A stretch of DNA of 64,000 nt from Oscillospiraceae bacterium (GTDB lineage: Bacteria; Bacillota; Clostridia; Oscillospirales; SIG627): NCBI GenBank assembly GCA_015065265.1, contig SVQQ01000003.1:3454-67453 (forward strand), read 5' to 3'. Below are positions 1-61,565 of this stretch, in pieces (the first letter of the stretch is position 1; the number at the start of each line of letters is the position of its first letter). The notes below the pieces were generated by a model that saw nothing but the letters and a program-made list of their open reading frames with translations, was not told where the DNA came from and made no database searches. Position numbers and translations under genes: made by a program.

Positions 1-208
1 CGGCGATGCCCTTCTGGAAAATAAAATCGCAGAAGGGGACGTAACCGAGTTTGGACTCTATATTAAAAAAGTAAACGGAATTTCAGGTGACTACGAAAAA
101 GACGGAGTTTACTGGGCGCTTTATAAAGACGGTGAATACCTTATGACAGGTGCCGACACAACCGAAATTACAAGCGGTGAACACTATGAACTCGTCCTGT
201 CAAAATAA
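1..208 (+). CDS. 3' end of DUF4430-like (transcobalamin C-terminal-like) protein, partial
   Basis: Frame from nt 2 reads GDALLENKIAEGDVTEFGLYIKKVNGISGDYEKDGVYWALYKDGEYLMTGADTTEITSGEHYELVLSK*. The G-x-Y-I-x-x-V-N-G...W-x-x-Y...G-A-D pattern resembles DUF4430. It overlaps the ECF S-component gene. Confidence 0.7.
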   Translation, partial: GDALLENKIAEGDVTEFGLYIKKVNGISGDYEKDGVYWALYKDGEYLMTGADTTEITSGEHYELVLSK

Positions 209-725
209 AAGAATACTGTCAATAAAAGAAATAGTAATCTTTTCAATGCTCGGCGCATTGATGTTCGTGTCAAAAATAATTCTCGAAGTACTTCCAAACA
301 TTCATCTGCTGGGTATGTTTACAATGCTATACACCATAGTATATCGTGGTAAAGCCTTAATCCCCATTTACCTTTTCGTCTTCATTCAAGGCGTGTGGTC
401 AGGCTTTGCACTCTGGTGGATTCCATATCTCTATTTATGGTTAGTACTCTGGGGGATAACAATGTTACTTCCCAAAAACCTTCCCACAAGATATGGAGCA
501 ATACTCTATCCTATCATAAACGCCCTTTTCGGACTTCTGTACGGAACACTCTATGCACCGTCACAAGCACTCCTTTTTGGGCTCGACTTTAAGGGAATGC
601 TCTTGTGGATTCTTCAGGGACTGCCATGGGACGTGACCCATGCAATAGGTAATCTGATAGCGGGACTGCTTATTGTGCCTCTTTCAAAAATACTTTTAAA
701 AATAAAGCAATTCCCGACAAAATGA
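186..725 (+). CDS. ECF transporter S component, CbrT-like (probable cobalamin uptake)
   Basis: Hydrophobic ~180 aa with LPNIHL and WWIPYLY motifs and a C-terminal DVTHAIGN helix. ATG at 186 preferred over GTG at 150. Follows the DUF4430-like gene. Confidence 0.7.
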   Translation: MNSSCQNKRILSIKEIVIFSMLGALMFVSKIILEVLPNIHLLGMFTMLYTIVYRGKALIPIYLFVFIQGVWSGFALWWIPYLYLWLVLWGITMLLPKNLPTRYGAILYPIINALFGLLYGTLYAPSQALLFGLDFKGMLLWILQGLPWDVTHAIGNLIAGLLIVPLSKILLKIKQFPTK

Positions 726-763: not shown

Positions 764-792
764 TTGATTTTATCTTCATAGTATGGTAAAAT
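764..792 (+). promoter_or_regulatory. sigmaA promoter of the Tyr T-box operon
   Basis: TTGATT (764-769), 17 nt spacer, TGgTAAAAT (extended -10; hexamer 787-792). Confidence 0.75.
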
Positions 793-807
793 GTTTGTAA
801 CATCTAA

Positions 808-1064
808 ATGCGTTTGAGCGAAAACAAGTAAGGATAAGAGTTTATCCAAAGAGAGTCGTTGGCAGGTGTGAAACGACGTTGACCTTATCCCCAATACATT
901 TCGTGAGCAGTGCACCGAACTTACAGTAGGCTGCAACGGGAGTTCCCGTCATAGAACGAGGGTATGTACGTACCCGTAAAGGCTGTTGTCGCGAGACTTC
1001 AGTGAACAGAGGTGGTACCACGGGAAATTCTCGTCCTCTTCTTTTGAAGAGGACGATATTTTTT
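808..1064 (+). promoter_or_regulatory. T-box riboswitch, Tyr specifier (UAC)
   Basis: K-turn TGC..GA / GA-GCA. Lower stem CGAAA (819-823) / TTTCG (899-903). AGTA loop, AGAGA bulge and GGTG distal loop present. Specifier TAC at 895-897 followed by A. T-box GGTGGTACCACG (1011-1022). Terminator TCGTCCTCTTC-TTTT-GAAGAGGACGA plus a T run (1031-1064). Confidence 0.92.
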
Positions 1065-1118
1065 ATCCATTTTAAAGTCTCTTTGAAAGAAAAAAGTACG
1101 AAAGAAGGGATTTTTAAA

Positions 1119-2699
1119 ATGGGTACACAGATTTTAACACTTATAATGCTCGTTGTATTTTTTGCGGTAATGATAGGGGTAGGTCTCTATTGTCGCCGCC
1201 ACTCTACCAACGTTGACGGTTTCGTCCTTGGTGGCAGAAGTGTTGGACCATGGCTTACCGCCTTCGCCTACGGTACTTCATACTTTTCAGCAGTTATTTT
1301 CGTAGGCTACGCAGGACAGTTCGGTTGGGCGTTCGGTATGTCGTCAACCTGGATAGGTCTCGGTAATGCCTTCATCGGCTCACTTCTCGCCTGGGTAGTT
1401 CTTGGCAGAAGAACAAGAGTTATGACCCAACACCTTGAAAGTAAGACAATGCCCGACTTCTTCCAGAAGAGATATAAGTCAAACGCACTGAAAATTGCCG
1501 CATCTTTCATAGTGTTCATTTTCCTCATTCCTTATACAGCGTCCCTCTATAACGGACTTTCAAGCCTCTTTACTATGGCTTTTGACGTGCCTTACTGGTC
1601 AGTAATTCTCATAATGGCAGTCCTTACAGGCATCTACGTCATCTTTGGCGGATATATGGCAACTGCGGTAAATGACTTTATTCAAGGTATTATAATGCTT
1701 GTAGGTATTGTTGCGGTAATCGGCGCAGTTTTACATAGTCAAGGTGGCTTTATGGAAGCATACAGCGCCCTTGGTGCTCTTCCTCACGATACAATGCAAG
1801 GCGCCTTTTCATCATTTGTAGGACCCGACCCAATATTCCTCTTCTTCGTTGTAATGCTCACCTCCCTTGGCACCTGGGGACTTCCTCAGATGATTGGTAA
1901 GTTCTACTCAATCAAAAATGAAGAAGCCATCAATAAAGGAACTATAATTTCAACAGCATTTGCAATCATCGTAGCAGGGGGTTGCTACTTCCTCGGCGGT
2001 TTTGGACGTCTTTTCGACTCACCCGACCTTTACGTAGGTGGAAAACTTATGAACGATAAGATTATCCCATCTATGCTTTCCGAACTTTCCCCCGTAATTG
2101 TGGCGATAGTTATAGTTCTTGTCCTTGCGGCATCAATGTCAACTCTCTCATCACTTGTGCTCACTTCAAGTTCCACCCTGACACTTGACGTAATCGTCCC
2201 CGGACTTGAAAAGAACAAAAAGAGTACAAGCGAGAAGAAAAAACTCTTAATTCTCCGCTTATTTATAGTTTTCTTTATCGTAGTATCTGCAGTAATCGCC
2301 ATTGTTAAGGATATGTTCCCCGGCTTTACCTTTATCGCGCAGATGATGGGCGTGTCTTGGGGCGCTCTTGCAGGAGCATTCCTTGCTCCCTTCCTCTATG
2401 GATTATACTGGAAGAAAACCACAAAATCGGCTGTCGCAGTTTCCTTTATCTTCGGCACAGGAATTGAACTTGTGCAACTGTTAAAAGACTTTGGCGTCTT
2501 TACAATAGACGGCGGACTTTTAGGATTTATTTTCAGAAATTCACTTTACTCGGGAGTATTTGCAATGCTTGGCGGACTTATCCTCGTTCCCATTATCAGC
2601 CTTATCACACCTAAACTTAAAAAAGAGGACACAGATGAAATGTTCTCTTGCTACCATAAGGAAGTAAAAGTATTATCCAAAGAATCACTTGGCAAATAG
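1119..2699 (+). CDS. sodium:solute symporter (SSS/PutP family)
   Basis: Multi-TM protein with FVLGGRSVG, TSYFSAVIFVGYAG and AASMSTLSS motifs. ATG at 1119 follows an AAGGGA RBS. Confidence 0.9.
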   Translation: MGTQILTLIMLVVFFAVMIGVGLYCRRHSTNVDGFVLGGRSVGPWLTAFAYGTSYFSAVIFVGYAGQFGWAFGMSSTWIGLGNAFIGSLLAWVVLGRRTRVMTQHLESKTMPDFFQKRYKSNALKIAASFIVFIFLIPYTASLYNGLSSLFTMAFDVPYWSVILIMAVLTGIYVIFGGYMATAVNDFIQGIIMLVGIVAVIGAVLHSQGGFMEAYSALGALPHDTMQGAFSSFVGPDPIFLFFVVMLTSLGTWGLPQMIGKFYSIKNEEAINKGTIISTAFAIIVAGGCYFLGGFGRLFDSPDLYVGGKLMNDKIIPSMLSELSPVIVAIVIVLVLAASMSTLSSLVLTSSSTLTLDVIVPGLEKNKKSTSEKKKLLILRLFIVFFIVVSAVIAIVKDMFPGFTFIAQMMGVSWGALAGAFLAPFLYGLYWKKTTKSAVAVSFIFGTGIELVQLLKDFGVFTIDGGLLGFIFRNSLYSGVFAMLGGLILVPIISLITPKLKKEDTDEMFSCYHKEVKVLSKESLGK

Positions 2700-2733
2700 A
2701 ATTCATTAAATAGTCTTTTGAAAGGAAATAAAA

Positions 2734-4368
2734 ATGCCCATTACAGAGATTTTACAGAAGAATGCCGACCTTTATCCCAACGACGTAAGTCTCATTGAGA
2801 TAAACCCCAAGTTCGAAAAAGAACGTACCTCTTGGCGCGAATATTCTCTAATTGAGACAAATTCAAGAGAGGTTTATAAAAAGCAGATAACCTGGCAGGA
2901 CTTCAACTGTCGTTCTAACCGCTTTGCAAACCTACTCCTGTCAAGAGGAATAAAAAAAGGGGACAAGGTTGCAATTCTTCTTATGAACTGCCTTGAATGG
3001 CTTCCCGTATATTTCGGAGCCCTTAAATCAGGCGCTATGGCAGTACCTTTAAACTACCGCTATACCGCAGATGAGATTAAGTATTGCCTTGAACTTGCCG
3101 ACGCCGACGTCCTTGTCTTCGGACCTGAATTTATCGGACGAGTTGAAGAGATTTGCACAAAGGTAAAACGTGTGAAAACTTGGCTCTACGTGGGCGGGGA
3201 TTGCCCCACCTTTGCCGAAAGTTACGAGGAACTGGTAGGCTATTGCTCGTCTAAATCACCCGCCATCAAACTCACCGACGACGACGAGGCGGCAATCTAC
3301 TTTTCATCAGGTACAACAGGCTTCCCCAAAGCCATAATACATAAACACAGAAGCCTTATGCACTCCGCCCTTACCGAGAATAATCACCATTCACAGACGA
3401 AAGACGACATCTTCCTGTGTATTCCGCCCCTCTACCATACGGGTGCCAAGATGCACTGGTTCGGCAGTTTCCTTGTAGGTGCAAAATCGGTACTCTTAAA
3501 CGGTATTAAACCCGAATGGATAATGAAGGTCGCAAGTGAAGAGAAGTGCTCTATCGTGTGGTTACTCGTGCCCTGGGCACAGGATATTCTGGATGCCATC
3601 GAGAGAGGGGATATCAAACTTGAAGAATACGACCTTACAAGTTGGCGCCTTATGCACATCGGCGCACAACCTGTACCCCCAAGTCTTATAAAGCGTTGGA
3701 AGAAGTATTTCCCGAACCACGCCTACGACACCAACTACGGACTTTCCGAGTCCATAGGCCCTGGCTGTGTACACCTCGGCGTTGAAAATGAACATAAAGT
3801 CGGCGCTATCGGTAAAGCAGGTTACGGTTGGGAAACTATGATAGTTGACGAAAATAAGAACCCTGTAAAGAGGGGAGAAGTCGGGGAACTTGCAGTAAAA
3901 GGCCCAGGCGTTATGACCGCTTACTATAAAGACGAAAAAGCCACCGCCGAAGTGCTTCGTGACGGTTGGCTCTTTACAGGAGATATGGCAGAGGAAGACG
4001 AGGACGGCTTTATCTGGCTGGTTGACCGCAAGAAAGACGTCATAATTTCAGGCGGTGAAAATCTGTACCCCGTTCAGATTGAAGACTTCTTACGTAAAAA
4101 CGATAAGATTTCCGACGTAGCAGTTATCGGACTTCCCGATGCAAGACTTGGAGAAATAGCCGCCGCTATAATCCAAGTCAAAGAGGGACAGACCTTGACA
4201 GAAGAAGAGGTTGAAGAGTTCTGTATGGACCTTCCCCGATACAAGAGACCTCATAAGGTAATCTTCGCAGACGTACCCCGTAACCCAACAGGTAAAATAG
4301 AAAAGCCCAAACTTCGTAAAATTTACTGTGGCGAAAGCGTTGTGGCTCAACAAAACGAAATAAAGTAA
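2734..4368 (+). CDS. acyl-CoA synthetase (AMP-forming, class I adenylate-forming enzyme)
   Basis: YFSSGTTGFPK P-loop, YGLSE, TGD, DRKKD and GKIEK motifs. Confidence 0.92.
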   Translation: MPITEILQKNADLYPNDVSLIEINPKFEKERTSWREYSLIETNSREVYKKQITWQDFNCRSNRFANLLLSRGIKKGDKVAILLMNCLEWLPVYFGALKSGAMAVPLNYRYTADEIKYCLELADADVLVFGPEFIGRVEEICTKVKRVKTWLYVGGDCPTFAESYEELVGYCSSKSPAIKLTDDDEAAIYFSSGTTGFPKAIIHKHRSLMHSALTENNHHSQTKDDIFLCIPPLYHTGAKMHWFGSFLVGAKSVLLNGIKPEWIMKVASEEKCSIVWLLVPWAQDILDAIERGDIKLEEYDLTSWRLMHIGAQPVPPSLIKRWKKYFPNHAYDTNYGLSESIGPGCVHLGVENEHKVGAIGKAGYGWETMIVDENKNPVKRGEVGELAVKGPGVMTAYYKDEKATAEVLRDGWLFTGDMAEEDEDGFIWLVDRKKDVIISGGENLYPVQIEDFLRKNDKISDVAVIGLPDARLGEIAAAIIQVKEGQTLTEEEVEEFCMDLPRYKRPHKVIFADVPRNPTGKIEKPKLRKIYCGESVVAQQNEIK

Positions 4369-4393
4369 TTTTTGCTTTTAAAGGAGAATTTCA

Positions 4394-6136
4394 ATGAAAA
4401 AGTTATTACTGGGTAACGCCGCAGTTGCCCGTGGCGCCTATGAAGCAGGAGTTAACGTCGTTGCTTCCTATCCAGGCACCCCAAGTACCGAAATTACAGA
4501 AGAAATAGTAAAGTTTGAAGAAATCTACGCCGAATGGTCACCTAACGAAAAGGTTGCCGCCGAAGTTGCAATCGGAGCATCTATTGCAGGTGGCAGAGCC
4601 ATGAGTTGTATGAAACACGTAGGACTCAACGTTATGGCAGACCCTGTCTTCACCGTTAGTTATACGGGAGTTAACGGTGGACTCGTCTTCTGCGTTGCAG
4701 ACGACCCCGGTATGCACTCTTCCCAGAACGAACAGGACTCAAGACACTACGCCAAGGCGTCGAAGATTACAATGCTCGAGCCTTCCGACTCAAAAGAGTG
4801 CCGTGACTTTACCCGCCTTGCTTTCGACCTTTCCGAAAAATTTGATACCCCCGTATTCATCCGCCTTTCCACAAGAGTTTCCCACTCTCAAAGCCTTGTG
4901 GAACTTGAAGAGAGAAAATTAGTTCCCGTAAAGGACTATGAGAAGAATATCGGAAAGTACGTTATGATGCCCGCAAACGCCATAAAGAGACACGTAACCG
5001 TTGAAGAACGCATTAACGCCCTTCGTGAGTTTGCCGAAGTAAGTGACCTTAATACAGTTGAAAATAACGGTTCAAAAATTGGCGTAATTACATCAGGTAT
5101 CACATATATGTACGCGAAAGAAGCACTGGAAGATAAGGTTGACTACCTTAAACTCGGTATGGTTTACCCCCTTCCCGAAAAGAAGATTGTGGATTTTGCG
5201 AAGAATTACGATAAGGTTTTTGTTATCGAAGAACTTGACCCCGTAATCGAAGACCACGCGAAAGCCCTCGGCGTTGAAGTTATCGGTAAAGAGGTGTTCA
5301 CACTTCTTGGCGAATATACCCCCGCTATGATTAAAAAGGCAGTACTTTCAGCCTCTGCCCCCGAAACAATTACCGTAAACGAAAATATCCCTGTCCGTCC
5401 CCCCGTTATGTGCGCAGGTTGCCCACACCGTGGCACCTTCTACGTACTTAAAAAACTCGGACTCGTCGTGTCGGGTGACATCGGTTGTTATACTCTGGGC
5501 GCTACAATGCCCTTGCAGTCGGTAGATACTACAATCTGTATGGGCGCATCCGTTTCAGCCGCACACGGTATGGCAAAAGCAAGAGGCAAGGAATTCAATA
5601 AGAAACTCGTCTCGGTTATAGGGGATTCCACCTTTATGCACTCGGGTATCACAGGACTTGTTGATATCGTTTATAATAAAGGCGCAAACACCGTAATCAT
5701 TCTCGATAACTCTATCACAGGTATGACAGGCCATCAGGACAACCCCACCACAGGCTATACTATCAGAGGTGAAGAGACAAAACAGGTTAACCTCATCACC
5801 CTTTGTAAAGCGGTAGGCGTTGAAAGAGTTGTGGTTGCCGACCCCTTCGACGTAAAACACTTTGAAGAAGTAGTCAAAGCCGAAGTTGAAGCAGACGAAC
5901 CCTCTGTAATTATCGCACAACGCCCCTGCGCACTTTTGAAGAGCGTTAAATATACAGGCGTATGTCAGATTAACGATAAATGTCGCAACTGTAAAATGTG
6001 TATGAAACTCGGTTGCCCCGCCATCACCCTTCGTGACGGTAAGGTAGTAATCGACCCCACCCAGTGTAACGGTTGCGGACTCTGTGTTAACGTTTGCCCG
6101 TTCTCTGCTATCGAAAAGAACGACGAAAGGAGATAA
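4394..6136 (+). CDS. iorA: indolepyruvate:ferredoxin oxidoreductase alpha subunit
   Basis: YPGTPSTE, NEKVA, CAGCPHR, GDIGCY and GDSTF TPP motifs, plus a C-terminal 2x[4Fe-4S] ferredoxin domain. Confidence 0.95.
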   Translation: MKKLLLGNAAVARGAYEAGVNVVASYPGTPSTEITEEIVKFEEIYAEWSPNEKVAAEVAIGASIAGGRAMSCMKHVGLNVMADPVFTVSYTGVNGGLVFCVADDPGMHSSQNEQDSRHYAKASKITMLEPSDSKECRDFTRLAFDLSEKFDTPVFIRLSTRVSHSQSLVELEERKLVPVKDYEKNIGKYVMMPANAIKRHVTVEERINALREFAEVSDLNTVENNGSKIGVITSGITYMYAKEALEDKVDYLKLGMVYPLPEKKIVDFAKNYDKVFVIEELDPVIEDHAKALGVEVIGKEVFTLLGEYTPAMIKKAVLSASAPETITVNENIPVRPPVMCAGCPHRGTFYVLKKLGLVVSGDIGCYTLGATMPLQSVDTTICMGASVSAAHGMAKARGKEFNKKLVSVIGDSTFMHSGITGLVDIVYNKGANTVIILDNSITGMTGHQDNPTTGYTIRGEETKQVNLITLCKAVGVERVVVADPFDVKHFEEVVKAEVEADEPSVIIAQRPCALLKSVKYTGVCQINDKCRNCKMCMKLGCPAITLRDGKVVIDPTQCNGCGLCVNVCPFSAIEKNDERR

Positions 6137-6140
6137 TGTT

Positions 6141-6707
6141 ATGACAAAGAATATAATGATTGTTGGAGTCGGCGGACAGGGAACTCTCCTTGCCAGTCGA
6201 ATTCTCGGTAACACCGTTATAAACGAAGGCTACGACGTAAAGGTCTCCGAAGTTCACGGTATGAGTCAGCGTGGCGGAAGCGTTGTAACCTACGTAAAAT
6301 ATGGCGAAAAGGTCTATTCCCCCATAGTTGATAAAGGATGCGCCGACATAATTTTAGCCTTCGAACTTCTCGAAGCATACCGCGCCCTTCCTTATCTTAA
6401 AAAAGGCGGAAAGATTATTGTAAATAATCAGAAGATTGACCCCATGCCCGTAATTTCAGGCGTTGCCGACTACCCCGATAATATCCCCGAAAAACTCTCG
6501 GGTCTTACCGACTGCACAGTAGTCGATGCCCTCGCCCTTGCAAAAGAGGCGGGAAGCACCAAGGCTGTTAACGTAGTCCTTATCGGCGTTATGGCAAGGA
6601 GCACCGATATCCCCTTTGAAAAGTGGATTGAAACCATAAAGACCACAGTCCCCCCGAAATTCCTCGACATCAACCTCAAAGCCTTTGAACTTGGCTACAA
6701 TAACTAA
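6141..6707 (+). CDS. iorB: indolepyruvate:ferredoxin oxidoreductase beta subunit
   Basis: GVGGQGTLLAS and SEVHGMSQRGGSV motifs. ATG at 6141. Confidence 0.95.
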   Translation: MTKNIMIVGVGGQGTLLASRILGNTVINEGYDVKVSEVHGMSQRGGSVVTYVKYGEKVYSPIVDKGCADIILAFELLEAYRALPYLKKGGKIIVNNQKIDPMPVISGVADYPDNIPEKLSGLTDCTVVDALALAKEAGSTKAVNVVLIGVMARSTDIPFEKWIETIKTTVPPKFLDINLKAFELGYNN

Positions 6708-6714
6708 AAAACAA

Positions 6715-6750
6715 CCCCGAGACAACAACGCTTGCCTCGGGGAAATTTTT
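6715..6750. terminator. hairpin terminator between convergent iorB and the WG-repeat gene
   Basis: CCCCGAG...CTCGGGG stem with flanking A and T runs. Confidence 0.65.
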
Positions 6751-6755
6751 ATGTA

Positions 6756-8465
6756 TTAGTTGTAACTGTAAACAAATTCAATATTATCGTAAACGGGCTG
6801 AATCACCAGTTCCCCATTTTCATTAATAAGTCCACGTTTGTCATTGATTTCGACGATTGTCAAACCGTCATCGGAGAAAGAGTAAATGTAATCATAAACA
6901 GGCTGAACAACAACTTCCCCCTTTTCGTTGATAATTCCCCATTTACCATTGATTTCGACTCTTGCCAAACCATCGTAGAAACTGCCAACGTCATCATATA
7001 TAGACTGAACAACCAACTCGCCCTTTTTGTTAATAAATCCGTATTTACCGTTGATTTCAACTTCTGCTAAACCGTTGTCTGAGAAAGGGTAAAAGACATC
7101 ATAAACAGGCTGAATCACGAAGTCACCCTTATTGTTAATAAATCCCCATTTACCGTTGATTTCGACTCCTGCCAAGCCGTTGTCGGAGAAATAGGAAACG
7201 TCATCATAAACAGGCTGAATCACAAGTTCACCCTTATCGTTGATAAATCCCCATTTACCGTTGATTTTAACTCCTGCCAAACCGTTGTCGGAGAAATAGG
7301 AAACGTCATCATAAACAGGCTGAATCACGAAGTCACCTTTATTGTTAATAAATCCCCATTTACCGTTGATTTTAACTTTTGCCAAAACGTTGTCCGAAAA
7401 AGAACCTGCACTATCATAAACGGGCTGAATCACGAGTTCGCCCTTTTCGTTAATAAATCCGTATTTTCCATTGATTTCGACTCTTGCCAAACCGTTGTAG
7501 AAAGAGTAAACGTCATCATAAACAGGCTGAATCACGAATTCCCCTTTTTCGTTGATAAATCCACATTTACCATTGATTTTGACTTTTGCCAAACCGTTTG
7601 AGAAAGGGTAAAAACCATCATATATAGGCTGAATCACGAGTTCCCCATTTTCATTAATAAGTCCACGTTTGTCATTGATTTTGACGATTGTCAAACCGTT
7701 GTCTGAGAAAGAGTCAATATCATCATAAATAGGCTGAACAACCAACTCGCCCTTTTCGTTAGTAACTCCCCATTTACCGTTGATTTTAACTTTTGCCAAA
7801 CCGTTGTCTGAGAAAGAGTCAATATCATCATAAATAGGCTGAACAACTAACTCGCCCTTTTTGTTAATAGATCCGTATTTACCGTTGATTTCAACTTTTG
7901 CCAAACCGTTGTCGGAGAAAGAGGAAACGTAATCATAAACAGGTTGAACAACGTATTTCCCTTTTTCGTTGATAAATCCCCATTTACCGTTGATTTTAAC
8001 TCCTGCCAAGCCGTTGGAGAAATCGTCAACAGCACCACTAATAGGCTCAATAACCACGATGCCCTTTTTGTTAATAAATCCCCATTTACTTTTGTCTTTG
8101 ATTCTTGCCAAACCGTTGTCTGAGAAAGAGTCAATATCATCATAAATAGGCTGAACAACCAACTCGCCCTTTTCGTTAATAACTCCCCATTTACCGTTGA
8201 TTTTGACTCCTGCCAAACCTTCGGAGAAATCGTCAACGTTATCAAAAATTGTATTTGTATAAGGTTTTCCGTTTAGGTCAAGGTACGACCAACCATTGTT
8301 TGATTGAACAAAAAATCCAACCACTTCAATCTCTGTGGTACTGCCTTCAATCTCTGTGGTACTGCCTTCCTCTGTATTATCCTTTTTTTCTTCCTTTTCA
8401 CAAGAGCAGAGGATTAGAGATAAAGTGAGCAAAATTACCCCAACTGCTTTTAAGAATTTTTTCAT
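6756..8465 (-). CDS. WG (KWG) repeat-containing lipoprotein
   Basis: ATG at 8465 after an AAGGAG RBS. Lipobox-like LILCSC. Fourteen 34-35 aa repeats of type (K/G)VxINGKWGFINxKGExVIQPVYD..FSDNGLA, plus one degenerate N-terminal copy. Confidence 0.9.
   Translation of the reverse strand: MKKFLKAVGVILLTLSLILCSCEKEEKKDNTEEGSTTEIEGSTTEIEVVGFFVQSNNGWSYLDLNGKPYTNTIFDNVDDFSEGLAGVKINGKWGVINEKGELVVQPIYDDIDSFSDNGLARIKDKSKWGFINKKGIVVIEPISGAVDDFSNGLAGVKINGKWGFINEKGKYVVQPVYDYVSSFSDNGLAKVEINGKYGSINKKGELVVQPIYDDIDSFSDNGLAKVKINGKWGVTNEKGELVVQPIYDDIDSFSDNGLTIVKINDKRGLINENGELVIQPIYDGFYPFSNGLAKVKINGKCGFINEKGEFVIQPVYDDVYSFYNGLARVEINGKYGFINEKGELVIQPVYDSAGSFSDNVLAKVKINGKWGFINNKGDFVIQPVYDDVSYFSDNGLAGVKINGKWGFINDKGELVIQPVYDDVSYFSDNGLAGVEINGKWGFINNKGDFVIQPVYDVFYPFSDNGLAEVEINGKYGFINKKGELVVQSIYDDVGSFYDGLARVEINGKWGIINEKGEVVVQPVYDYIYSFSDDGLTIVEINDKRGLINENGELVIQPVYDNIEFVYSYN
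8324..8369. repeat. 21-bp tandem duplication (EGSTTEI x2)
   Basis: CTTCAATCTCTGTGGTACTGC occurs twice in tandem, followed by CTTC. Confidence 0.9.
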
Positions 8466-8486
8466 AGTCCTTTTCTCCTTTAAATT

Positions 8487-8697
8487 AAAAAAGTGTGTGC
8501 AAACCGAAGTCGCACACACCGAAAAAGGCGGCTCCGTTTTGCTACCACACAAAAACCTTTTCACACACCCAATAAGGACGACGCGAAATAGAGCCGACAC
8601 TTTTTACCAAAGTAAAAAGAGTATCGTCTCTCATTGGGCATTTTATTCGATTTTTGTGTGGTAAGAAGATTATATCACAAATTCTTTTGTTTGTAAA
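8487..8697 (-). promoter_or_regulatory. sigmaA promoter plus structured 5' leader with an intrinsic terminator
   Basis: Minus strand: TTTACA-17-TATAAT (8697-8669). 12-bp stem ACCACACAAAAA/TTTTTGTGTGGT with nested stems. Terminator GTGTGTGCGA..TTTGCACACAC-T6 just before the RBS. Confidence 0.7.
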
Positions 8698-28525: not shown

Positions 28526-29596
28526 TTAGTTTTTCTTTATAGGGCAAGTCCAGTTAAATTTGTCTTCAATTTTGCCCCATTGAATTCCTGTGAGAGTATC
28601 GTAAAGGTGCTGTGTAACCTTACCGATTTTGCCTTCGTTGATAACGAACTTCTTGCCCTTGTAAGCAAGTTCGCCAATGGGTGATACAACTGCCGCTGTA
28701 CCGCAACCCCAAGCCTCTTCAAGAGTTCCGTTTTCGAGAGCCTCTTCAAGTTCGTTTACACTGATAAGGCGTTCACTTACAGTATAGCCTTCACTCTTTA
28801 ATACTTCGATACAAGACTTTCTTGTAATACCGGGAAGAATTGAGCCTGTGAGTGCAGGTGTTACGATTTCTCCGTTTATTTTGAACATAACGTTCATAGC
28901 GCCAACTTCTTCAATGTACTTTCTCTCAACACCGTCAAGCCAAAGTACCTGTGAATAACCCTGAAGTTCTGCCTTCTGACCTGCTCTGTTACTTGCAGCA
29001 TAGTTACCGCCACACTTAGCATAGCCTGTACCACCGCGAACAGCTCTGACGTCGTCGGCTTCAATCATGATTTTAACAGGGTTGATGCCTTCTTTGTAGT
29101 AACTGCCAACGGGAGAAGTGATTATCATAAAGGTTGCATTGTGTACCGCGTGAACGCCGAGAGTTTCGTCACTACCGAACATAAAAGGACGAATGTAAAG
29201 GGAAGTACCCTCTGCAAAAGGTGTCCAGTCCTGTTCGAACTCAACGAATTTAGTAAGAACTTCCATAGCGAGGTCTTCTGGAATCTGAGGAAGACACAAA
29301 CGTTCTGCAGACGTGTTCATTCTGCGAATGTTTTCAATGGGACGGAAAAGCTGAACTGAACCGTCTTTCTTTCGATAGGCTTTAAGACCTTCGAAAATTT
29401 CAGAACCGTAGTGAAGAACTGTACAAGCAGGATGAATCGAGAAAGGACCGAAAGGAACGATTCTCGCATCGTGCCAACCTTCACCCTCGGTGTAATTCAT
29501 AATGAACATATGGTCTGTAAAATACTTTCCAAAGCCCAGAGTAGATGCCTCGGGTTTTTCTTTTGGCTGTGCAATTTTAGTGATTGAAATATCCAT
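28526..29596 (-). CDS. ilvE: branched-chain amino acid aminotransferase
   Basis: FGKYFTDHM, FEGLKAY, LYIRPF, GGTGYAKCGGNYA (PLP Lys) and LPGITRKS motifs. ATG at 29596. Confidence 0.95.
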   Translation of the reverse strand: MDISITKIAQPKEKPEASTLGFGKYFTDHMFIMNYTEGEGWHDARIVPFGPFSIHPACTVLHYGSEIFEGLKAYRKKDGSVQLFRPIENIRRMNTSAERLCLPQIPEDLAMEVLTKFVEFEQDWTPFAEGTSLYIRPFMFGSDETLGVHAVHNATFMIITSPVGSYYKEGINPVKIMIEADDVRAVRGGTGYAKCGGNYAASNRAGQKAELQGYSQVLWLDGVERKYIEEVGAMNVMFKINGEIVTPALTGSILPGITRKSCIEVLKSEGYTVSERLISVNELEEALENGTLEEAWGCGTAAVVSPIGELAYKGKKFVINEGKIGKVTQHLYDTLTGIQWGKIEDKFNWTCPIKKN

Positions 29597-29615
29597 ATTT
29601 TTATCCTCCTGTAAC

Positions 29616-30149
29616 TTAAAAGTCACGTCCGATTTTCATAGCGTCAAGGTTCTTGTCAAGCATATCTATATGCTTTGCGGAAATGACCTTGCGAAGAGCC
29701 GCTTCAACTGATTTTTCATCAAATTCACCGGTCTCTTTGAGAACTTTACCTACCATAATAATGTTAGCAAGGGTAGGAGTCATATTATCGTCGGCAAGTT
29801 TTGTAGCAGGAATTGCAAAAGCACGAACGTCTTTACGGATAACCTCTCTTTCGATAAGAGAAGAATCGTAGAAAATCATTCCACCCTCTGCCACGTCGTT
29901 TTCGTACTTGTCAAGAGAAGGAAGGTTCATAGCGATGAGAATGTCGGGCTTTGAAACGATAGGTGAGCCAACGGGAGTGTCGCTGATAATTACCGAGCAA
30001 CTCGCTGTACCGCCTCTCATTTCAGGACCGTATGAAGGAAGCCATGAAACGTTTTTTCCGTCGGTAAGTCCCTTATATGCAAGGAGTTTTCCCGAGAAGA
30101 GAATACCCTGACCGCCGAAACCTGCAAAAAGATACTTATTAGTACTCAT
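29616..30149 (-). CDS. 2-oxoacid:ferredoxin oxidoreductase gamma subunit (Vor-type)
   Basis: AGFGGQG and [12 protein letters not shown] motifs. Confidence 0.92.
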
Positions 30150-30910
30150 TAGTTTGCCCCCTTTACGATTCCCGCACTTCTGTCTTTATATACTCCCAAA
30201 GGATAATAGGGAATCATTTTTTCGTCTATCCATTCAAGAGCCTTTTGAGGAGTCATACCCCAGTTTGTAGGACAAGAGGAAATAACCTCAACAAGAGAAA
30301 ATCCCTTGTTGTTAACCTGATTTTCAAAAGCCTTTTTAATAGCCTTCTTTGCCGCCTTAACGTTCTTAACGTTGTTTACAGCAACTCTTTCAAGATACTC
30401 AGGACCGTCAAGTTCTGAGAGAAGTTCGCAGACTCTGATGGGGAAACCGCAGTGGTTTGTGTCTCTTCCGTAAGGAGAAGTCTGTGTCACCTGACCTGGA
30501 AGAGAAGTAGGAGCCATCTGACCGCCTGTCATTCCGTAGATCGCATTGTTAATGAAGATTACGGTAATGTTTTCGTTACGAGCTGCAGAGTGAACTGTCT
30601 CTGCCATACCGATTGAAGCAAGGTCACCGTCACCCTGATAAGTAAATACAATGTGTCCTTCGGGGTTCGCACGTTTAACGCCTGTTGCAACAGCAGGAGC
30701 ACGTCCGTGAGCCGCCTCTATCATATCACAGTTAAAATAGTTGTAAGCCATAACCGAGCAACCTACGGGAGCCACACCTATTGTCTTACCTTCAATTCCG
30801 AGTTCATCAATACACTCTGCTACAAGACGGTGAACAATACCGTGTGTACAACCGGGACAATAGTGAAAGGGAATGTCGGCAAGTGCATGGGGTTTATCAA
30901 ATACTACCAT
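30149..30910 (-). CDS. 2-oxoacid:ferredoxin oxidoreductase beta subunit (Vor-type)
   Basis: YCPGCTHG, HGRAPAVATG, YQGDGDLA, YGMTGGQ and SCPTNW motifs. Confidence 0.92.
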   Translation of the reverse strand: MVVFDKPHALADIPFHYCPGCTHGIVHRLVAECIDELGIEGKTIGVAPVGCSVMAYNYFNCDMIEAAHGRAPAVATGVKRANPEGHIVFTYQGDGDLASIGMAETVHSAARNENITVIFINNAIYGMTGGQMAPTSLPGQVTQTSPYGRDTNHCGFPIRVCELLSELDGPEYLERVAVNNVKNVKAAKKAIKKAFENQVNNKGFSLVEVISSCPTNWGMTPQKALEWIDEKMIPYYPLGVYKDRSAGIVKGAN

Positions 30911-31977
30911 TATTTAGCACCTCCGTTTTTATTGGCATTTTTAATAGCATCGAGAATCTGTTCAGGATTGGGTATCATACCACCCGCTCTGTTTACAAGA
31001 GTCACGGGACGACGACATTCTGTAGCAAGACGTACGTCTTCAATCATCTGACCCATTGAAAGTTCAACTGAAATAAACGTATGTACCTTTTCAGCCGCCT
31101 TCTTGAAAGGCTTCTTGGGGAAAGGCCAGAGAGTTATAGGACGGATAAGACCAACCTTGATGCCCTCTTTTCTCGCCTCGTCAATAGCATTCTTTGCAAC
31201 TCTTGAAGCAATACCGAAAGCCGCAATACAGATTTCAGCGTCTTCCATACAGTACTCTTCATACATAACTTCGTTTTCTTCGATTGTTTCGTATCTCTTG
31301 TATCTGTCGAAGTTTCCTTTTTCAAGGGCTTCGGGGTCAAGGTAAAGGGAGTTTGTGATGTTGTGGAAACGTTCAAGTTTCGTACCAGTTGTAGCCCAAG
31401 GCTTTTCGATAGGCTCACCTACTTTAAGGTCAAGGGAAACAGGTTCCATCATCTGACCCATAGTACCGTCGGCAAGAATCATTGAAGTCATACGGTACTT
31501 ATCTGCAAGGTCAAAACCATGAACTGTGAGGTCTGCCATTTCCTGAACTGATGCAGGGGCAAGAACTATCATATGGAAGTCACCGTGAGCAGCACCCTTT
31601 GTAGCCTGGAAATAGTCCGACTGAGAAGGCTGAATACCGCCAAGACCGGGACCACCTCTTTGAACGTTAACTACAAGAGAGGGAAGGTCAGCACCTGCAA
31701 GGTAGGAAAGTCCTTCTCCTTTAAGAGAAATTCCTGGGCTTGAAGATGATGTCATTACACGAAGTCCGCAAGATGCAACTCCGTAAACCATATTTATAGC
31801 GGCAACTTCACTTTCTGCCTGAAGGAAGCAACCACCGATTTTAGGCATTCTTTTTGCCATATAAGCGGCAATTTCTGTTTGAGGAGTAATGGGGTAACCG
31901 AAATAGTGTCTGCAACCTGCGATGATTGCCGCTTCGGCTATAGCCTCATTACCTTTCATTAAAACTTTATCTGACAT
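30910..31977 (-). CDS. vorB: 2-ketoisovalerate:ferredoxin oxidoreductase alpha subunit (VorB family)
   Basis: MKGNEA, GYPITPQ, QAESE, TSSSSPGISL and RGGPGLGGIQPSQSDY motifs. Confidence 0.9.
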   Translation of the reverse strand: MSDKVLMKGNEAIAEAAIIAGCRHYFGYPITPQTEIAAYMAKRMPKIGGCFLQAESEVAAINMVYGVASCGLRVMTSSSSPGISLKGEGLSYLAGADLPSLVVNVQRGGPGLGGIQPSQSDYFQATKGAAHGDFHMIVLAPASVQEMADLTVHGFDLADKYRMTSMILADGTMGQMMEPVSLDLKVGEPIEKPWATTGTKLERFHNITNSLYLDPEALEKGNFDRYKRYETIEENEVMYEEYCMEDAEICIAAFGIASRVAKNAIDEARKEGIKVGLIRPITLWPFPKKPFKKAAEKVHTFISVELSMGQMIEDVRLATECRRPVTLVNRAGGMIPNPEQILDAIKNANKNGGAK

Positions 31978-31992
31978 TTTTTCACGACCTTT

Positions 31993-32199
31993 CTATTTCT
32001 CAATCTTGATTATACAGTCGGGACACATTGTAGCGCAGAAAGTACAACCGATACAAGCCTCTTCATTTACTGCTTCTACGGGGTGATGTCCTTTTTTGTT
32101 GATTTTTTCCTTGGCAAGTGCCAGAACTTTTTTAGGACAAGCGTCAACGCACAGTCCACAGCCCTTGCAATTGTCTGTTTTAAAAGTGAGTTTAGGCAT
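31993..32199 (-). CDS. 2x[4Fe-4S] delta subunit of the 2-oxoacid oxidoreductase
   Basis: CKGCGLCVDACP and CIGCTFCATMCP. Confidence 0.92.
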   Translation of the reverse strand: MPKLTFKTDNCKGCGLCVDACPKKVLALAKEKINKKGHHPVEAVNEEACIGCTFCATMCPDCIIKIEK

Positions 32200-32211
32200 T
32201 TTTTACACTCC

Positions 32212-32874
32212 TTACATGATTTTTTTCTGCAAATTTAAGGGTATTAAATTTGCAACTTTATTTTCAAGGGAGGGGAAAATCTTCGAGTGCACAGTTGTTG
32301 CTATCAAAGGAAGGGAAGTGGCTTTCGCAAGTTCCTCTGCCTTGTGATAAAGGTTTAGCACTAACTCGGGTGTTGTTTCTTCTCCGATGTTTGAATTGTT
32401 TATGATTGCAGTGAAAGGGATTTTTCCCGCAATCTCTATTTCCCTCATCACTTCAATGGCACTTTCGATGTTTGAGGTGAGGGGTCGACAGGCATTGTAA
32501 ACGAAAATCATTTCATAATCGTTTTCTTCAAGAATGTAGGGGGTATATCTTCCAAGCACCAGAGCCCCTCGCTCGTCTCCGCCAATGTCAAGAATACAGT
32601 GACCTGTGTTCTTGTCCACAAGGGAATACATTTCTTGGGGCAGGGCAGGTAAGTCAACGTTTGACCCTGCAAAAGGCGATGCAATAAGTTTTATCCCCGC
32701 ATCTTCAAATTCTTTTTGACTGTCTTTTGTACGGAAATAAGGATTGACAATGTCCATATCGGCAACTGTTACTTTACCATACCTCTTTTTAATTTCAAAG
32801 GCAAGATTTACAGCAATATTTGTCTTTCCGCTTCCGTAATGTCCTGACAAAAGGGTTAATCTTTTAAATTCCAT
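32212..32874 (-). CDS. P-loop NTP-binding protein of unknown function (CobQ/MinD-like)
   Basis: GHYGSGKT Walker A, DMDIVNPYFR and DIGGDERG motifs. Confidence 0.8.
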   Translation of the reverse strand: MEFKRLTLLSGHYGSGKTNIAVNLAFEIKKRYGKVTVADMDIVNPYFRTKDSQKEFEDAGIKLIASPFAGSNVDLPALPQEMYSLVDKNTGHCILDIGGDERGALVLGRYTPYILEENDYEMIFVYNACRPLTSNIESAIEVMREIEIAGKIPFTAIINNSNIGEETTPELVLNLYHKAEELAKATSLPLIATTVHSKIFPSLENKVANLIPLNLQKKIM

Positions 32875-35162
32875 TACAGTTTATTCCTTTGTATCTTTCC
32901 GCTGACAGTTTTGGGAAGAGAGTCTCTGAATACAACTATTCTCGGATACTTATAAGGAGCAGTTCTGCTCTTAACGTAATCCTGAATTTCCTTTTTGAGA
33001 GCGTCTGTGGGTTCAGTACCTTTAACAAGAACGATACTTGCCTTAACTACCTGTCCTCTCACCTCGTCGGGCGCTGCGGATACACCGCATTCAAGAACGT
33101 AGGGCAGTTCCATAATAACGCTTTCAATTTCAAAAGGACCGATTCGGTAGCCTGAGGACTTGATAACGTCGTCAGTTCTGCCAACGTACCAGTAGAATCC
33201 GTCTTCATCACGCCAAGCAACGTCGCCTGTGTGATAATAGCCGTCGTACCATACCTCATCTGTCTTTTCTTTATTCTGATAGTAGCCCTTGAAGAGTCCG
33301 CAAGGAGCACCGTCCTGAACTCTTACGCAAATTTCTCCCGATTCACCGTCAGAAACTTCGTTTCCGTCTGCATCAAGAAGATGTACGTCATATATGGGAG
33401 CAGGTTTACCCATAGAACCTATTTTATGATTTGCTCCCACCAGATTTCCTATAATCATAGTACTTTCCGTCTGACCAAAGCCTTCAAGAATTTGAAGACC
33501 TGTAAGTTTTTCAAACTGATAATATACCTCGGGGTTAAGTGCCTCACCTGCTGTTGTCATATGCTTAACGGAAGACAGGTCGTACTTTGAAATGTCCTCT
33601 TTTACCATCATACGAAGTATAGTGGGAGGGGCACAGAAGGTAGTAATATGATATTTACTGAACATGGGAAGTATGTCTGCCGCGTCAAAACGGTCAAAGT
33701 CATATACGAAGGTGGCCGCCTCGCATATCCACTGTCCGTAAAGTTTACCCCACATAGCCTTTGCCCAACCTGTGTCGGATATAGTAAGGTGAAGTCCGTT
33801 GGGGTCAACCGTATGCCAGTATTTTGCAGTATGGAAGTGACCGAGTGCATATTTAAATGAGTGACAGGCAATTTTCGGATAACCTGTTGTGCCCGAAGTG
33901 AAGTACATAAGCATCAGGTCGTCACCACCTGCCGACTCGGACGTTCTGTCAAAGTGAGTACTAAAGAGTGACATCTCACTGTCAAAGTCACGCCAACCGT
34001 CAATCTTCTTGTCGCCAACTAAAATCTTGTATTCAAGAGTGGGGCAGTGCTCTGCGGCAAGGTCTACCTGCTTTGCAGTTTGGTCAGAGGCAGTACAAAC
34101 AATAGCCTTAACTCCCGCAGAATTGAAGCGGTATTCAAAGTCGTGCTCCTGAAGTTGATTTGTTGCAGGAATTGCAATCGCACCAAGTTTATGAAGACCG
34201 AGCATTGCTATCCAGAATTGGTAGTGACGTTTAAGAACCAGCATTACTCTGTCACCCTTCTTGATACCAAGTGACTTAAAGTAGTTTGCCGCCTGTGACG
34301 AAAGTTTCTTCATATCCTTGAAGGTGAAGCGCCTCTCAGTCTTGTCAATGGAAATATGTAACATTGCAAGTTTGTCAGGGTCTTTATCTGCAATAGCATC
34401 AACTATGTCGTATGCAAAGTTGAAGTTTTCGATGTTCTTGAATTTTATTGAAAGGGGAGTACCGTTTTCATCTTCGACAGTATCGATGAAATTCTTATAT
34501 ACTCTCTCCTTGGTGTCCTTTGGAACTTTTCTTTCAATAATTGTATTTGAGTGAACGAGTTCGGATATGGGCTCACCTGTGGGATTAAGAACGATAGCAT
34601 AGAAAAGACAGTCCGCATTATCTACAGCAATCATACCGTGAGGAGTTGAACTGTTGTAATAAATACTGTCACCTGGGCCAAGAACTTCCGTGTGGTCGCC
34701 TACCTGAACTTTAAGGTGCCCCTCAATGATGATATCACATTCCTGACCTGCGTGAGTTGTCAGTTCAATTGCCTTGTTTTGAGCCTCGGCACTGTATGCC
34801 GCCTTTACGTAAAGGGGCTCGGCAATTCTGTTCTGGAAAGAGGGCGCCAGATTATAGTAAATCATTCCGTGGGCCTGTTCAATCTTCTGACCCATACCAC
34901 GCCTTGTAACAGTATATGTTTTAAGTTTGGGACTATAACCTTCAATAATGTCGGTAACGTCAACGTTAAGGGCCTGAGCACAACGGTAGATAAATGCGAA
35001 AGTGAGGTCCATTTCACCCTTTTCGCAACTTATGTATTCTTCTGTAGAAACACCTGTCTTCTGTGACATTTCCTCGGGGGATAGAGCCACGATTTCGCGA
35101 AGTTCTTTTATTCTCCCCGCCATTTCCTTGATTTTGCAATCAAGTTCAGAAAATTTGTTCAT
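32874..35162 (-). CDS. XRE-HTH/cupin regulator domain fused to a medium/branched-chain acyl-CoA synthetase
   Basis: N-terminal HTH (RIKELRE..EYISCEKG) and cupin (THAGQE..YYNSSTPHG), then an ACS domain (YFTSGTTGYPK, DTGWAK, EGFGQTE, TGD, KTVSGK). Confidence 0.9.
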   Translation of the reverse strand: MNKFSELDCKIKEMAGRIKELREIVALSPEEMSQKTGVSTEEYISCEKGEMDLTFAFIYRCAQALNVDVTDIIEGYSPKLKTYTVTRRGMGQKIEQAHGMIYYNLAPSFQNRIAEPLYVKAAYSAEAQNKAIELTTHAGQECDIIIEGHLKVQVGDHTEVLGPGDSIYYNSSTPHGMIAVDNADCLFYAIVLNPTGEPISELVHSNTIIERKVPKDTKERVYKNFIDTVEDENGTPLSIKFKNIENFNFAYDIVDAIADKDPDKLAMLHISIDKTERRFTFKDMKKLSSQAANYFKSLGIKKGDRVMLVLKRHYQFWIAMLGLHKLGAIAIPATNQLQEHDFEYRFNSAGVKAIVCTASDQTAKQVDLAAEHCPTLEYKILVGDKKIDGWRDFDSEMSLFSTHFDRTSESAGGDDLMLMYFTSGTTGYPKIACHSFKYALGHFHTAKYWHTVDPNGLHLTISDTGWAKAMWGKLYGQWICEAATFVYDFDRFDAADILPMFSKYHITTFCAPPTILRMMVKEDISKYDLSSVKHMTTAGEALNPEVYYQFEKLTGLQILEGFGQTESTMIIGNLVGANHKIGSMGKPAPIYDVHLLDADGNEVSDGESGEICVRVQDGAPCGLFKGYYQNKEKTDEVWYDGYYHTGDVAWRDEDGFYWYVGRTDDVIKSSGYRIGPFEIESVIMELPYVLECGVSAAPDEVRGQVVKASIVLVKGTEPTDALKKEIQDYVKSRTAPYKYPRIVVFRDSLPKTVSGKIQRNKL

Positions 35163-35179
35163 TTTTACCTCCGATTAGG

Positions 35180-35445
35180 GACAAAAAAATCGCCCCAAAG
35201 ATATGTTCCTTGAGACGAGTTGTTTACACATTACCCGCGGTACCACTCAATTTGCAGTAAAACTGCCACTCTTGGAATCTAGCAATTCCTATGCCTTTAC
35301 GCAGCAATCACGGAGAGGTTCTACCGGCAAACGCTTTCTTCCTCTCGGCTCGGAAACTACAAATGACGTCTCTTTTTTGCGACTCGCACCACCCGTCGCC
35401 TCTCTGTAAAAAAAGTATTACGCCACACTCTTCGTCATAGCCTTT
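35180..35445 (-). promoter_or_regulatory. T-box riboswitch, Val specifier (GUA)
   Basis: Minus strand: K-turn GGC-TAT-GA / GA-GCC; lower stem GAAG/TTTC; specifier GTA (35360-35358) followed by G; upper stems GGCGT/ACGTC and CTTTTTT/AAAAAAG; AGAGA and GGTG motifs; T-box GAGTGGTACCGCG (35248-35236); terminator TCGTCTCAAGG..CTTTGGGGCGA-T7. Confidence 0.9.
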
Positions 35446-35460
35446 ATCTTGAATAAAACA

Positions 35461-61325: not shown

Positions 61326-61334
61326 TAGCTTAGT

Positions 61335-61497
61335 GATAGAGGTGCGACGATTATAAGTAATTTCCCACACGTGCAAAGGAGCAGGGTAATGAAAGGAATC
61401 GCCGCCGAAATCCGAAAAATATCCTTGAACTGTTTTTCGGGTTGGTTGACTTGTAGAATATGCAGTCGACTGTCACAATTATTTGTGGAGTGCTATC
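61335..61497 (+). promoter_or_regulatory. lysine riboswitch (L-box)
   Basis: GATAGAGGTGCG..AGTA..GAAAGG..CGCCGAA..CTGTCAC..GTGGAGTGCTATC; P1 is GATAG/CTATC. Confidence 0.9.
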
Positions 61498-61565
61498 TTT
61501 TGTGACTTTTTTGTCGTGGGTGATAGTACCCATGACATTTTTTATTTTTTTAGGAGGATTTTTCT

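Follow-up and report, generated by a model that had tools for sequence, protein, structure and literature searches.

T-box leaders turn genes on when the cognate tRNA is uncharged, and the tyrS leader of Bacillus subtilis, studied by Grundy and Henkin, reportedly responds to tyrosine (Tyr) through the specifier codon UAC. Work on rumen microbes in the 1960s showed that fermentation acids serve anaerobes as precursors of aromatic and branched-chain amino acids. Allison is said to have described the assimilation of phenylacetate and indoleacetate by rumen bacteria, and Porat et al. reportedly described, in Methanococcus maripaludis, a pathway from aryl acids to aromatic amino acids that depends on indolepyruvate:ferredoxin oxidoreductase (IOR) and coexists with the de novo route. 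In gut bacteria, IOR is usually read as catabolic, producing phenylacetate and related host-active metabolites. We analyzed a 64,000-nucleotide stretch of the genome of an Oscillospiraceae bacterium (assembly GCA_015065265.1, contig SVQQ01000003.1, positions 3,454 to 67,453 of the forward strand), hereafter the window, in which a T-box with a UAC specifier heads an operon encoding a symporter of the SSS family, an acyl-CoA ligase and the two IOR subunits, IorA and IorB. This operon probably serves a tyrosine-starvation-induced salvage of 4-hydroxyphenylacetate to tyrosine.

The proposed chemistry would be that of the M. maripaludis and rumen pathways (arylacetate to arylacetyl-CoA to arylpyruvate, followed by transamination), with a de novo route alongside in both. 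Those cases rest on labelling and mutants and have no known RNA switch, whereas the present one offers candidate genes and a tRNA-sensing switch. The IOR of Bacteroides is reported to lie close to an AMP-forming arylacetate-CoA ligase and to be possibly biosynthetic, the AMP-forming reaction being argued to favour thioester synthesis (PMC13285125, 2026). As in the IOR-PaaK(-ACT) clusters of Bacteroides and other anaerobes (PMC13285125), IorAB of the window adjoins an AMP-forming ligase, and relatives of the window locus carry the order ligase-IorAB-PaaK-ACT. The window locus differs from those clusters in that its ligase is a FadD13/4CL-like ANL enzyme and not of the PaaK type, in that the unit adds a symporter and a T-box, and in that PaaK-ACT has moved behind a separate phenylalanine (Phe) T-box. 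A full-text search, which did not cover the 2008 T-box regulon survey (Vitreschak et al.), found no link between a T-box and indolepyruvate (IOR), phenylacetate-CoA ligase (PaaK) or a CoA ligase/oxidoreductase, and no paper found by full-text search named a 4-hydroxyphenylacetate-CoA ligase. The literature search likewise yielded no description of the bacterial genes or the control of a route from fermentation acids to amino acids. An ordinary T-box and a known chemistry are involved here; the novelty lies in their connection, together with the ligase family and the transporter family.

The leader matches the Rfam T-box model RF00230 over its full length (model positions 1-219; 105.9 bits against a gathering score of 93, E 2.3e-22; coordinates in Table 1). 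Its UAC specifier is followed by A898 and then by UUUCG (899-903), which pairs with CGAAA (819-823) to form the lower stem. An independent minimum-energy fold of 804-910 gave the identical lower stem and left CCAAUACA unpaired. Because the Thr and Cys T-boxes of the same genome carry a UGGA bulge, the alternative register ACA (Thr) is disfavoured. In the antiterminator bulge of the window leader (UGGU, 1013-1016), U1016 faces the tRNA discriminator. The genome has a single tRNA-Tyr gene (anticodon GUA, at the end of contig C42), whose acceptor stem GGGAGCG/CGCUCCC is followed by a discriminator A, a match to U1016. The 3' arm of the antiterminator is also the 5' arm of the terminator (common segment 1031-1039), the two structures being mutually exclusive, and because the terminator is much stronger than the overlapping antiterminator (energies in Table 1), the default state of the leader is 'off'. 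A putative promoter ends 12 nt ahead of the T-box. This leader is the sole Tyr T-box found in the window's genome. Like the B. subtilis tyrS T-box, it has a specifier loop in Stem I, a purine after UAC, a UGGN bulge in the antiterminator and an intrinsic terminator that competes with this antiterminator, but the genes under its control encode a transporter, a CoA ligase and IOR, not a tyrosyl-tRNA synthetase.

Four genes on the forward strand follow the T-box, spaced 34, 25 and 4 nt apart. The operon and a convergent WG-repeat gene are both closed by one bidirectional hairpin. IorA passes the cut-off of its equivalog model TIGR03336 (762.9 bits against 650.9), as does IorB that of NF005325 (289.8 bits against 230). 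IorA has matches to PF02775 (thiamine pyrophosphate-binding), PF01855 and Fer4, and its translation contains two 4Fe-4S cysteine motifs, CRNCKMCMKLGCP and CNGCGLCVNVCP. By tblastn, both subunits are single copy in the genome; apart from itself, IorB matched only the VOR gamma subunit (24% identity). None of the gene families in the operon is an aminotransferase, and at least four class I/II aminotransferases are encoded elsewhere in the genome, so that the activation, IOR and aminotransferase steps are all encoded. The original prediction, which was made from the letters of this locus, had read UAC at this position in the standard register, fitted the UGGU bulge to an A discriminator, proposed an Rfam search as a check, and placed symporter, ligase, iorA, iorB and terminator in one unit that relies on an aminotransferase acting in trans. 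The cmscan alignment and the fold agree on the specifier, the genome's own tRNA-Tyr supplies the discriminator A73, and the coordinates, the gene families and the aminotransferases found elsewhere bear out the rest.

The ligase is a member of the AMP-forming ANL enzymes (PF00501, E 7.9e-75; PF13193, E 1.2e-11), and its core motifs SSGTTGFPKA, YGLSE, TGD and PTGKIEK are invariant in 15 homologues. It does not reach the curated cut-off of the long-chain fatty-acid-CoA ligase model NF004837 / PRK06187 (416.3 bits against 476), and that identity was rejected on this ground. It is not of the PaaK type either, having PF13193 and lacking PF14535 (AMP-binding_C_2); a tblastn search with it matched seven other loci of the genome at E <=1e-5, none of them the PaaK gene. 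Its closest relative in the PDB is FadD13 of Mycobacterium tuberculosis (3r44). With this enzyme, FadD5, feruloyl-CoA synthetase (8wev) and 4-coumarate-CoA ligase (5bsm) it has the ANL fold and motifs in common (phmmer E 4e-73 to 4e-54). The window ligase stands beside IOR and a Tyr T-box and not among lipid or phenylpropanoid genes, and a further point of difference is the very tight conservation of its family, with 72-93% identity across bacterial families.

Stretches of species genomes that match the ligase number at least 595, and we examined the best 80 of them (ligase identity 72-93%). The named homologues are Oscillospiraceae and Acutalibacteraceae metagenome-assembled genomes from ruminant and other guts, and the 80 best loci include Ruminococcus flavefaciens, R. 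albus, Lachnospiraceae metagenome-assembled genomes and bins labelled Lentisphaerae. The neighbours at these loci are IorA (41), IorB (37), SSS (29), PaaK (25) and ACT (21), and the common full operon among relatives is (SSS)-ligase-IorA-IorB-PaaK-ACT. On 11 related loci, Rfam at its gathering threshold reported no T-box. Because four of the nine T-boxes of the window's own genome also fall below that threshold, we used instead an nhmmer profile built from confirmed leaders, which could still miss very divergent ones. This profile found a T-box directly ahead of the unit in 19 of the 80 closest loci, and all 19 read GAA-UAC-(A/C) in the same register, although their stems differ. In a second, independently drawn set of 151 genomes, evenly distributed across the order, 45 had the ligase, and the upstream regions of 40 of these were examined. 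Fifteen carried a T-box, with UAC in 14 and UUC in one. In both sets together, UAC heads 33 of the 34 T-box-bearing ligase loci and UUC the remaining one. The original prediction had proposed a search for conserved symporter-ligase-iorAB synteny under aromatic T-boxes, and the leaders found, 19/19 in the closest loci and 14/15 in the order sample, are Tyr T-boxes. In the bins labelled Lentisphaerae or Victivallales (L025, L040, L045, L051, L075, L087), the ligase orthologues are 73-76% identical to that of the window; these loci could reflect horizontal transfer or mis-binning.

The single UUC leader belongs to G063 (contig C1, L153), where it precedes a ligase-IorAB-PaaK operon. Two sister genomes of the same genus (g50), G108 (L159) and G160 (L162), have UAC in the same register, a one-base difference, and the comparison is, as the leaders read, a natural specifier switch. 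A strict rule from specifier to ligase, which holds for 14 of 15 leaders in the evenly drawn sample, is thereby broken. Because G063 carries UUC on the same operon type, the specifier reports the trigger of the operon, and not strictly the substrate of its first ligase. A complementary case is G154, from the window's own family, in which a UAC T-box is followed by the ligase, a strong terminator and, after that, genes in convergent orientation. G154 has IorA on a different contig, where the 2.8 kb upstream of the gene contain no T-box. In this monocistronic case the Tyr switch therefore follows the ligase itself, independent of an adjacent IOR. No T-box stood ahead of IorAB or PaaK2-IorAB in the 11 other loci examined. 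In another relative, G056, a 518-aa open reading frame after the ligase was compared with the SSS protein and is not a homologue of it.

In the window genome, PaaK-ACT does not lie behind IorB; it is found on contig C4, where a UUC T-box precedes it. A T-box stands directly ahead of PaaK-ACT in 15 of the 30 closest PaaK loci of the order, that of the window genome among them, and all 15 read GAA-UUC-(A/C). In a rough leader tree, built from a short alignment and without branch support, the Phe leaders of PaaK fall among the Tyr leaders and apart from the pheS, Leu, Ile, Val, Cys and Trp leaders. This grouping suggests that the Phe leaders may be duplicated Tyr leaders with a one-base switch. 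Across the 151 genomes, IorA occurs in 93, PaaK in 95 and the ligase in 45, and every IorA-positive genome has PaaK. Both IorA and PaaK are present in 44 of the 45 ligase-positive genomes, and IorA in 49 of the 106 ligase-negative ones (Fisher p = 8e-11 for co-occurrence of ligase and IorA, uncorrected for phylogeny). The ligase thus behaves like an accessory to a core of IOR and PaaK, which is the pattern that a second substrate would be expected to give.

The SSS protein matches only the general SSF family PF00474. It scores 198.3 bits against the cut-off of 515.5 of the PutP sodium/proline symporter model (TIGR02121), and 170 against 328 for PanF, so that by these curated cut-offs both identities were rejected. 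It shares with PutP and PanF the PF00474 fold family, and theirs are its best-matching NCBIfam models; the conserved neighbours of the window SSS protein, on the other hand, are arylacetate-type ligases. For instance, SSS orthologues (63-64% identity) lie directly ahead of PaaK-ACT, with no T-box, in four genomes of one genus, and homologues that are mostly 62-65% identical lie ahead of a second PaaK paralogue adjoining IorA in four further genomes. Because the family pairs with either arylacetate-type ligase, the protein is more easily read as a candidate arylacetate importer than as a tyrosine carrier.

The wider genome (1.65 Mb, 40% GC, 96% complete) offers a setting for the operon. The runs that contain the window stretch are faecal and gut DNA metagenomes. 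Nine T-boxes were found, four of them scoring below the Rfam gathering threshold, and five of the nine (Val, Ile, Leu, Phe and Tyr) sit on acid-activating genes. The Val T-box, also in the window, heads seven genes: a 762-aa fusion of a helix-turn-helix (HTH), a cupin and an AMP ligase, a 220-aa protein without a Pfam match, a 68-aa ferredoxin, three VOR subunits (POR_N/PFOR_II, TPP_enzyme_C and POR) and a class IV (IlvE-type) aminotransferase. This operon looks like a complete isobutyrate-to-valine route, with every predicted step encoded, and because it is an internal parallel it supports the anabolic reading of the Tyr operon. The Ile T-box unit follows directly after the Leu T-box unit (C22:5964-12822). 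The fusion of a DNA-binding domain to an acyl-CoA ligase, as in the HTH-cupin-ligase proteins, is unusual. IlvD (PF00920) and TrpA (PF00290) were not found in this 96%-complete genome and were present in 14 of 14 control genomes; import and salvage from acids and indole seem to be the only sources of branched-chain amino acids and tryptophan.

Tyrosine and phenylalanine are a different matter. A single operon on contig C46 encodes DAHP synthase, prephenate dehydrogenase (tyrA), aroB, aroA, aroC, a chorismate mutase-prephenate dehydratase (CM-PDT, pheA), aroE-aroK and aroQ, and the T-box scan of the genome found no T-box on this contig. Tyrosine auxotrophy is ruled out by this operon. The original prediction had raised the possible absence of a shikimate/tyrA route, and that idea falls. 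Because the route is complete, salvage would be an optional supplement and no replacement of a missing pathway.

Table 1. Features of the Tyr T-box operon and the T-boxes of the window genome. Positions are those of the window unless a contig is named.
Feature	Position	Strand	Evidence or genes controlled
Promoter-like site: TTGATT, 17 nt, extended -10 TG-TAAAAT	764-792	+	Consensus scan
T-box leader RF00230, class I transcriptional type	804-1041	+	cmscan full-length match
Specifier codon UAC (Tyr)	895-897	+	cmscan alignment, fold, register kept in 33 related leaders
Antiterminator, 7-nt bulge UGGUACC at 1013-1019	1008-1039	+	cmscan and fold, -9.6 kcal/mol
Leader terminator hairpin, 11 bp (1031-1056), with U run	1031-1066	+	-19.4 kcal/mol, z -7.2
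SSS symporter family protein, 526 aa, proposed arylacetate importer	1119-2699	+	PF00474, E 1.6e-53
ANL AMP-forming acyl-CoA ligase, 544 aa, FadD13/4CL-like, proposed 4-hydroxyphenylacetate-CoA ligase	2734-4368	+	PF00501 and PF13193
IorA, IOR alpha subunit (thiamine pyrophosphate, 2x[4Fe-4S]), 580 aa	4394-6136	+	TIGR03336
IorB, IOR beta subunit, 188 aa	6141-6707	+	NF005325
Bidirectional terminator hairpin CCCCGAG...CTCGGGG, A run before, T run after	6715-6742	both	
T-box Tyr (UAC)			SSS-ligase-IorA-IorB operon
T-box Phe (UUC)	contig C4		True PaaK ligase (PF14535) and ACT protein
T-box Val (GUA)	35208-35447; operon 28526-35447	-	Seven genes
T-box Ile (AUC)	contig C22		Paralogous 773-aa HTH-cupin-AMP ligase
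T-box Leu (CUC)	contig C22		LeuA-like protein and 819-aa xylose-isomerase-like TIM barrel-AMP ligase fusion
T-box Trp (UGG)	contig C29:1802-3019		Lone trpB
Remaining T-boxes			pheST, thrS, cysE-cysS

Under the salvage reading, the operon would work as follows. From established T-box biology, uncharged tRNA-Tyr (GUA, A73) would pair with UAC and the bulge, stabilising the antiterminator and allowing read-through. The SSS symporter would import 4-hydroxyphenylacetate made by other gut microbes, and the ligase would convert it to 4-hydroxyphenylacetyl-CoA at the expense of ATP, releasing AMP and pyrophosphate. IorAB, with reduced ferredoxin, would then carboxylate the thioester to 4-hydroxyphenylpyruvate, from which one of the aminotransferases encoded elsewhere would form tyrosine. 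Phenylacetate may follow a parallel branch, with PaaK-ACT behind its own Phe (UUC) T-box and the same IOR shared. Salvage would thereby act as a cheaper supplement to de novo synthesis through shikimate and tyrA, switched on by low tRNA-Tyr charging.

Several observations weigh against this reading. The proposed substrates and flux direction are read from regulation and gene context. The ligase lies below every named NCBIfam cut-off, its best model is a long-chain fatty-acid ligase, and a PDB sequence search with it found no arylacetate ligase among its relatives. Because the solved structures closest to it are those of fatty-acyl, feruloyl, coumaroyl and malonyl ligases, its substrate cannot be named from sequence alone. 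The SSS protein is nearest to the PutP/PanF models, and not to ActP-type carriers. With shikimate, tyrA and pheA complete, gene content does not require salvage. About 60 to 75% of the orthologous ligase loci, including those of R. flavefaciens and R. albus, have no T-box, and G063 has UUC. None of the RNA runs contained the window stretch. In addition, with the genome's only IorAB behind the Tyr switch and PaaK behind the Phe switch, the supply of IOR under Phe starvation alone is unexplained; it would need leaky read-through, joint starvation or a side activity of VOR. The function that the original prediction assigned, salvage of an arylacetate to tyrosine, therefore stands in part: the comparative wiring, with UAC in 33 of 34 leaders and the ligase accompanying IOR, speaks for it, and the complete shikimate/tyrA/pheA set and the one UUC relative speak against it.

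Some of the same observations would fit a broader enzyme, in which the FadD-like ligase takes several arylacetates (phenylacetate, 4-hydroxyphenylacetate, indoleacetate) or arylpropionates and the Tyr specifier is a trigger for the whole operon, silent on the substrate of the ligase. PaaK neighbours the ligase in 25 of the 80 related loci and ACT in 21, the G063 operon has exchanged UAC for UUC, IOR accepts all three arylpyruvates, and the IOR-adjoining ligase of Bacteroides is described as a general arylacetate-CoA ligase (PMC13285125). However, wherever the two ligases are wired separately (the window genome, G154 and G056) the FadD-like one is always under Tyr and PaaK under Phe, the Tyr T-box of G154 controls the FadD-like ligase only, and the presence of the ligase in about half of the genomes with IOR and PaaK suggests a substrate beyond that of PaaK. 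We regard the broader enzyme as unlikely, although it keeps an appreciable share of our judgement.

Two further explanations set the ligase-IOR pairing aside. In one, the T-box would serve tyrosine uptake through the SSS protein, acting as a Na+/tyrosine symporter of the sort that T-boxes usually control, while the ligase and IorAB would be carried along on the transcript and have a catabolic or unrelated role. Amino-acid transporters are common T-box targets, and the best model of the protein, though far from its cut-off, is the amino-acid carrier PutP. Yet Tyr T-boxes lie directly ahead of the ligase in loci without an SSS gene (L019, L029-L031, L054, L058, L078 and G154), SSS orthologues lie ahead of PaaK-type ligases without any T-box, and AMP-forming ligases, which favour thioester synthesis, are ill-suited to catabolism (PMC13285125); tyrosine uptake as the role of the operon is quite improbable. 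In the other, the ligase would act on 4-hydroxyphenylpropionate, 4-hydroxyphenyllactate, p-coumarate or a fatty acid, and the IorAB neighbourhood would be coincidental. The presence of feruloyl- and 4-coumarate-CoA ligases and FadD13 among the nearest solved structures would agree with this, but IorA adjoins the ligase in 41 of 80 loci, IOR is present in 44 of 45 ligase-bearing genomes, the direct IOR substrate is arylacetyl-CoA only, and the operon has no further enzymes for propionate, lactate or cinnamate side chains. Such an acid is very improbable as the substrate. Salvage of 4-hydroxyphenylacetate to tyrosine remains the reading we prefer.

Taken jointly, the T-boxes of this genome and its relatives may outline a widespread acid-salvage regulon in gut and rumen Clostridia, annotated by its own specifiers; we offer this wider picture tentatively, with a little less than even confidence. 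In such a regulon, 4-hydroxyphenylacetate would be the dedicated substrate of the FadD-like CoA ligases, the SSS family would be Na+/arylacetate symporters and PaaK a phenylalanine-dedicated ligase, the Phe leaders would be Tyr duplicates retargeted by one base (UAC to UUC), and the five T-boxes on acid-activating genes would serve the conversion of fermentation acids made by neighbouring microbes to amino acids by ferredoxin-driven CO2 fixation. Because IlvD is absent, acid salvage would then be the only biosynthetic route to branched-chain amino acids.

A tRNA-charging sensor ahead of IOR and the ligases is evidence, taken directly from regulation, that in a large group of Clostridia from gut and rumen IOR runs in the opposite, anabolic direction. 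Two unnamed families, one of ligases and one of symporters, also gain candidate functions from this link, which predicts cross-feeding on 4-hydroxyphenylacetate and phenylacetate. Since 4-hydroxyphenylacetate is a precursor of p-cresol, its consumers could matter for host exposure to p-cresol-related metabolites.

Other features of the window were recorded in passing. Just upstream of the T-box promoter, a gene at 150-725 (+) encodes a 191-aa multi-pass membrane protein with no Pfam or NCBIfam match. The gene convergent with the operon (6756-8600, minus strand) encodes a 614-aa protein with about 15 WG-containing beta repeats (PF14903, E 5e-181) and an N-terminal signal/lipobox-like segment. 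Farther along, a lysine riboswitch aptamer (RF00168, 108.4 bits) lies at 61329-61503 (+).

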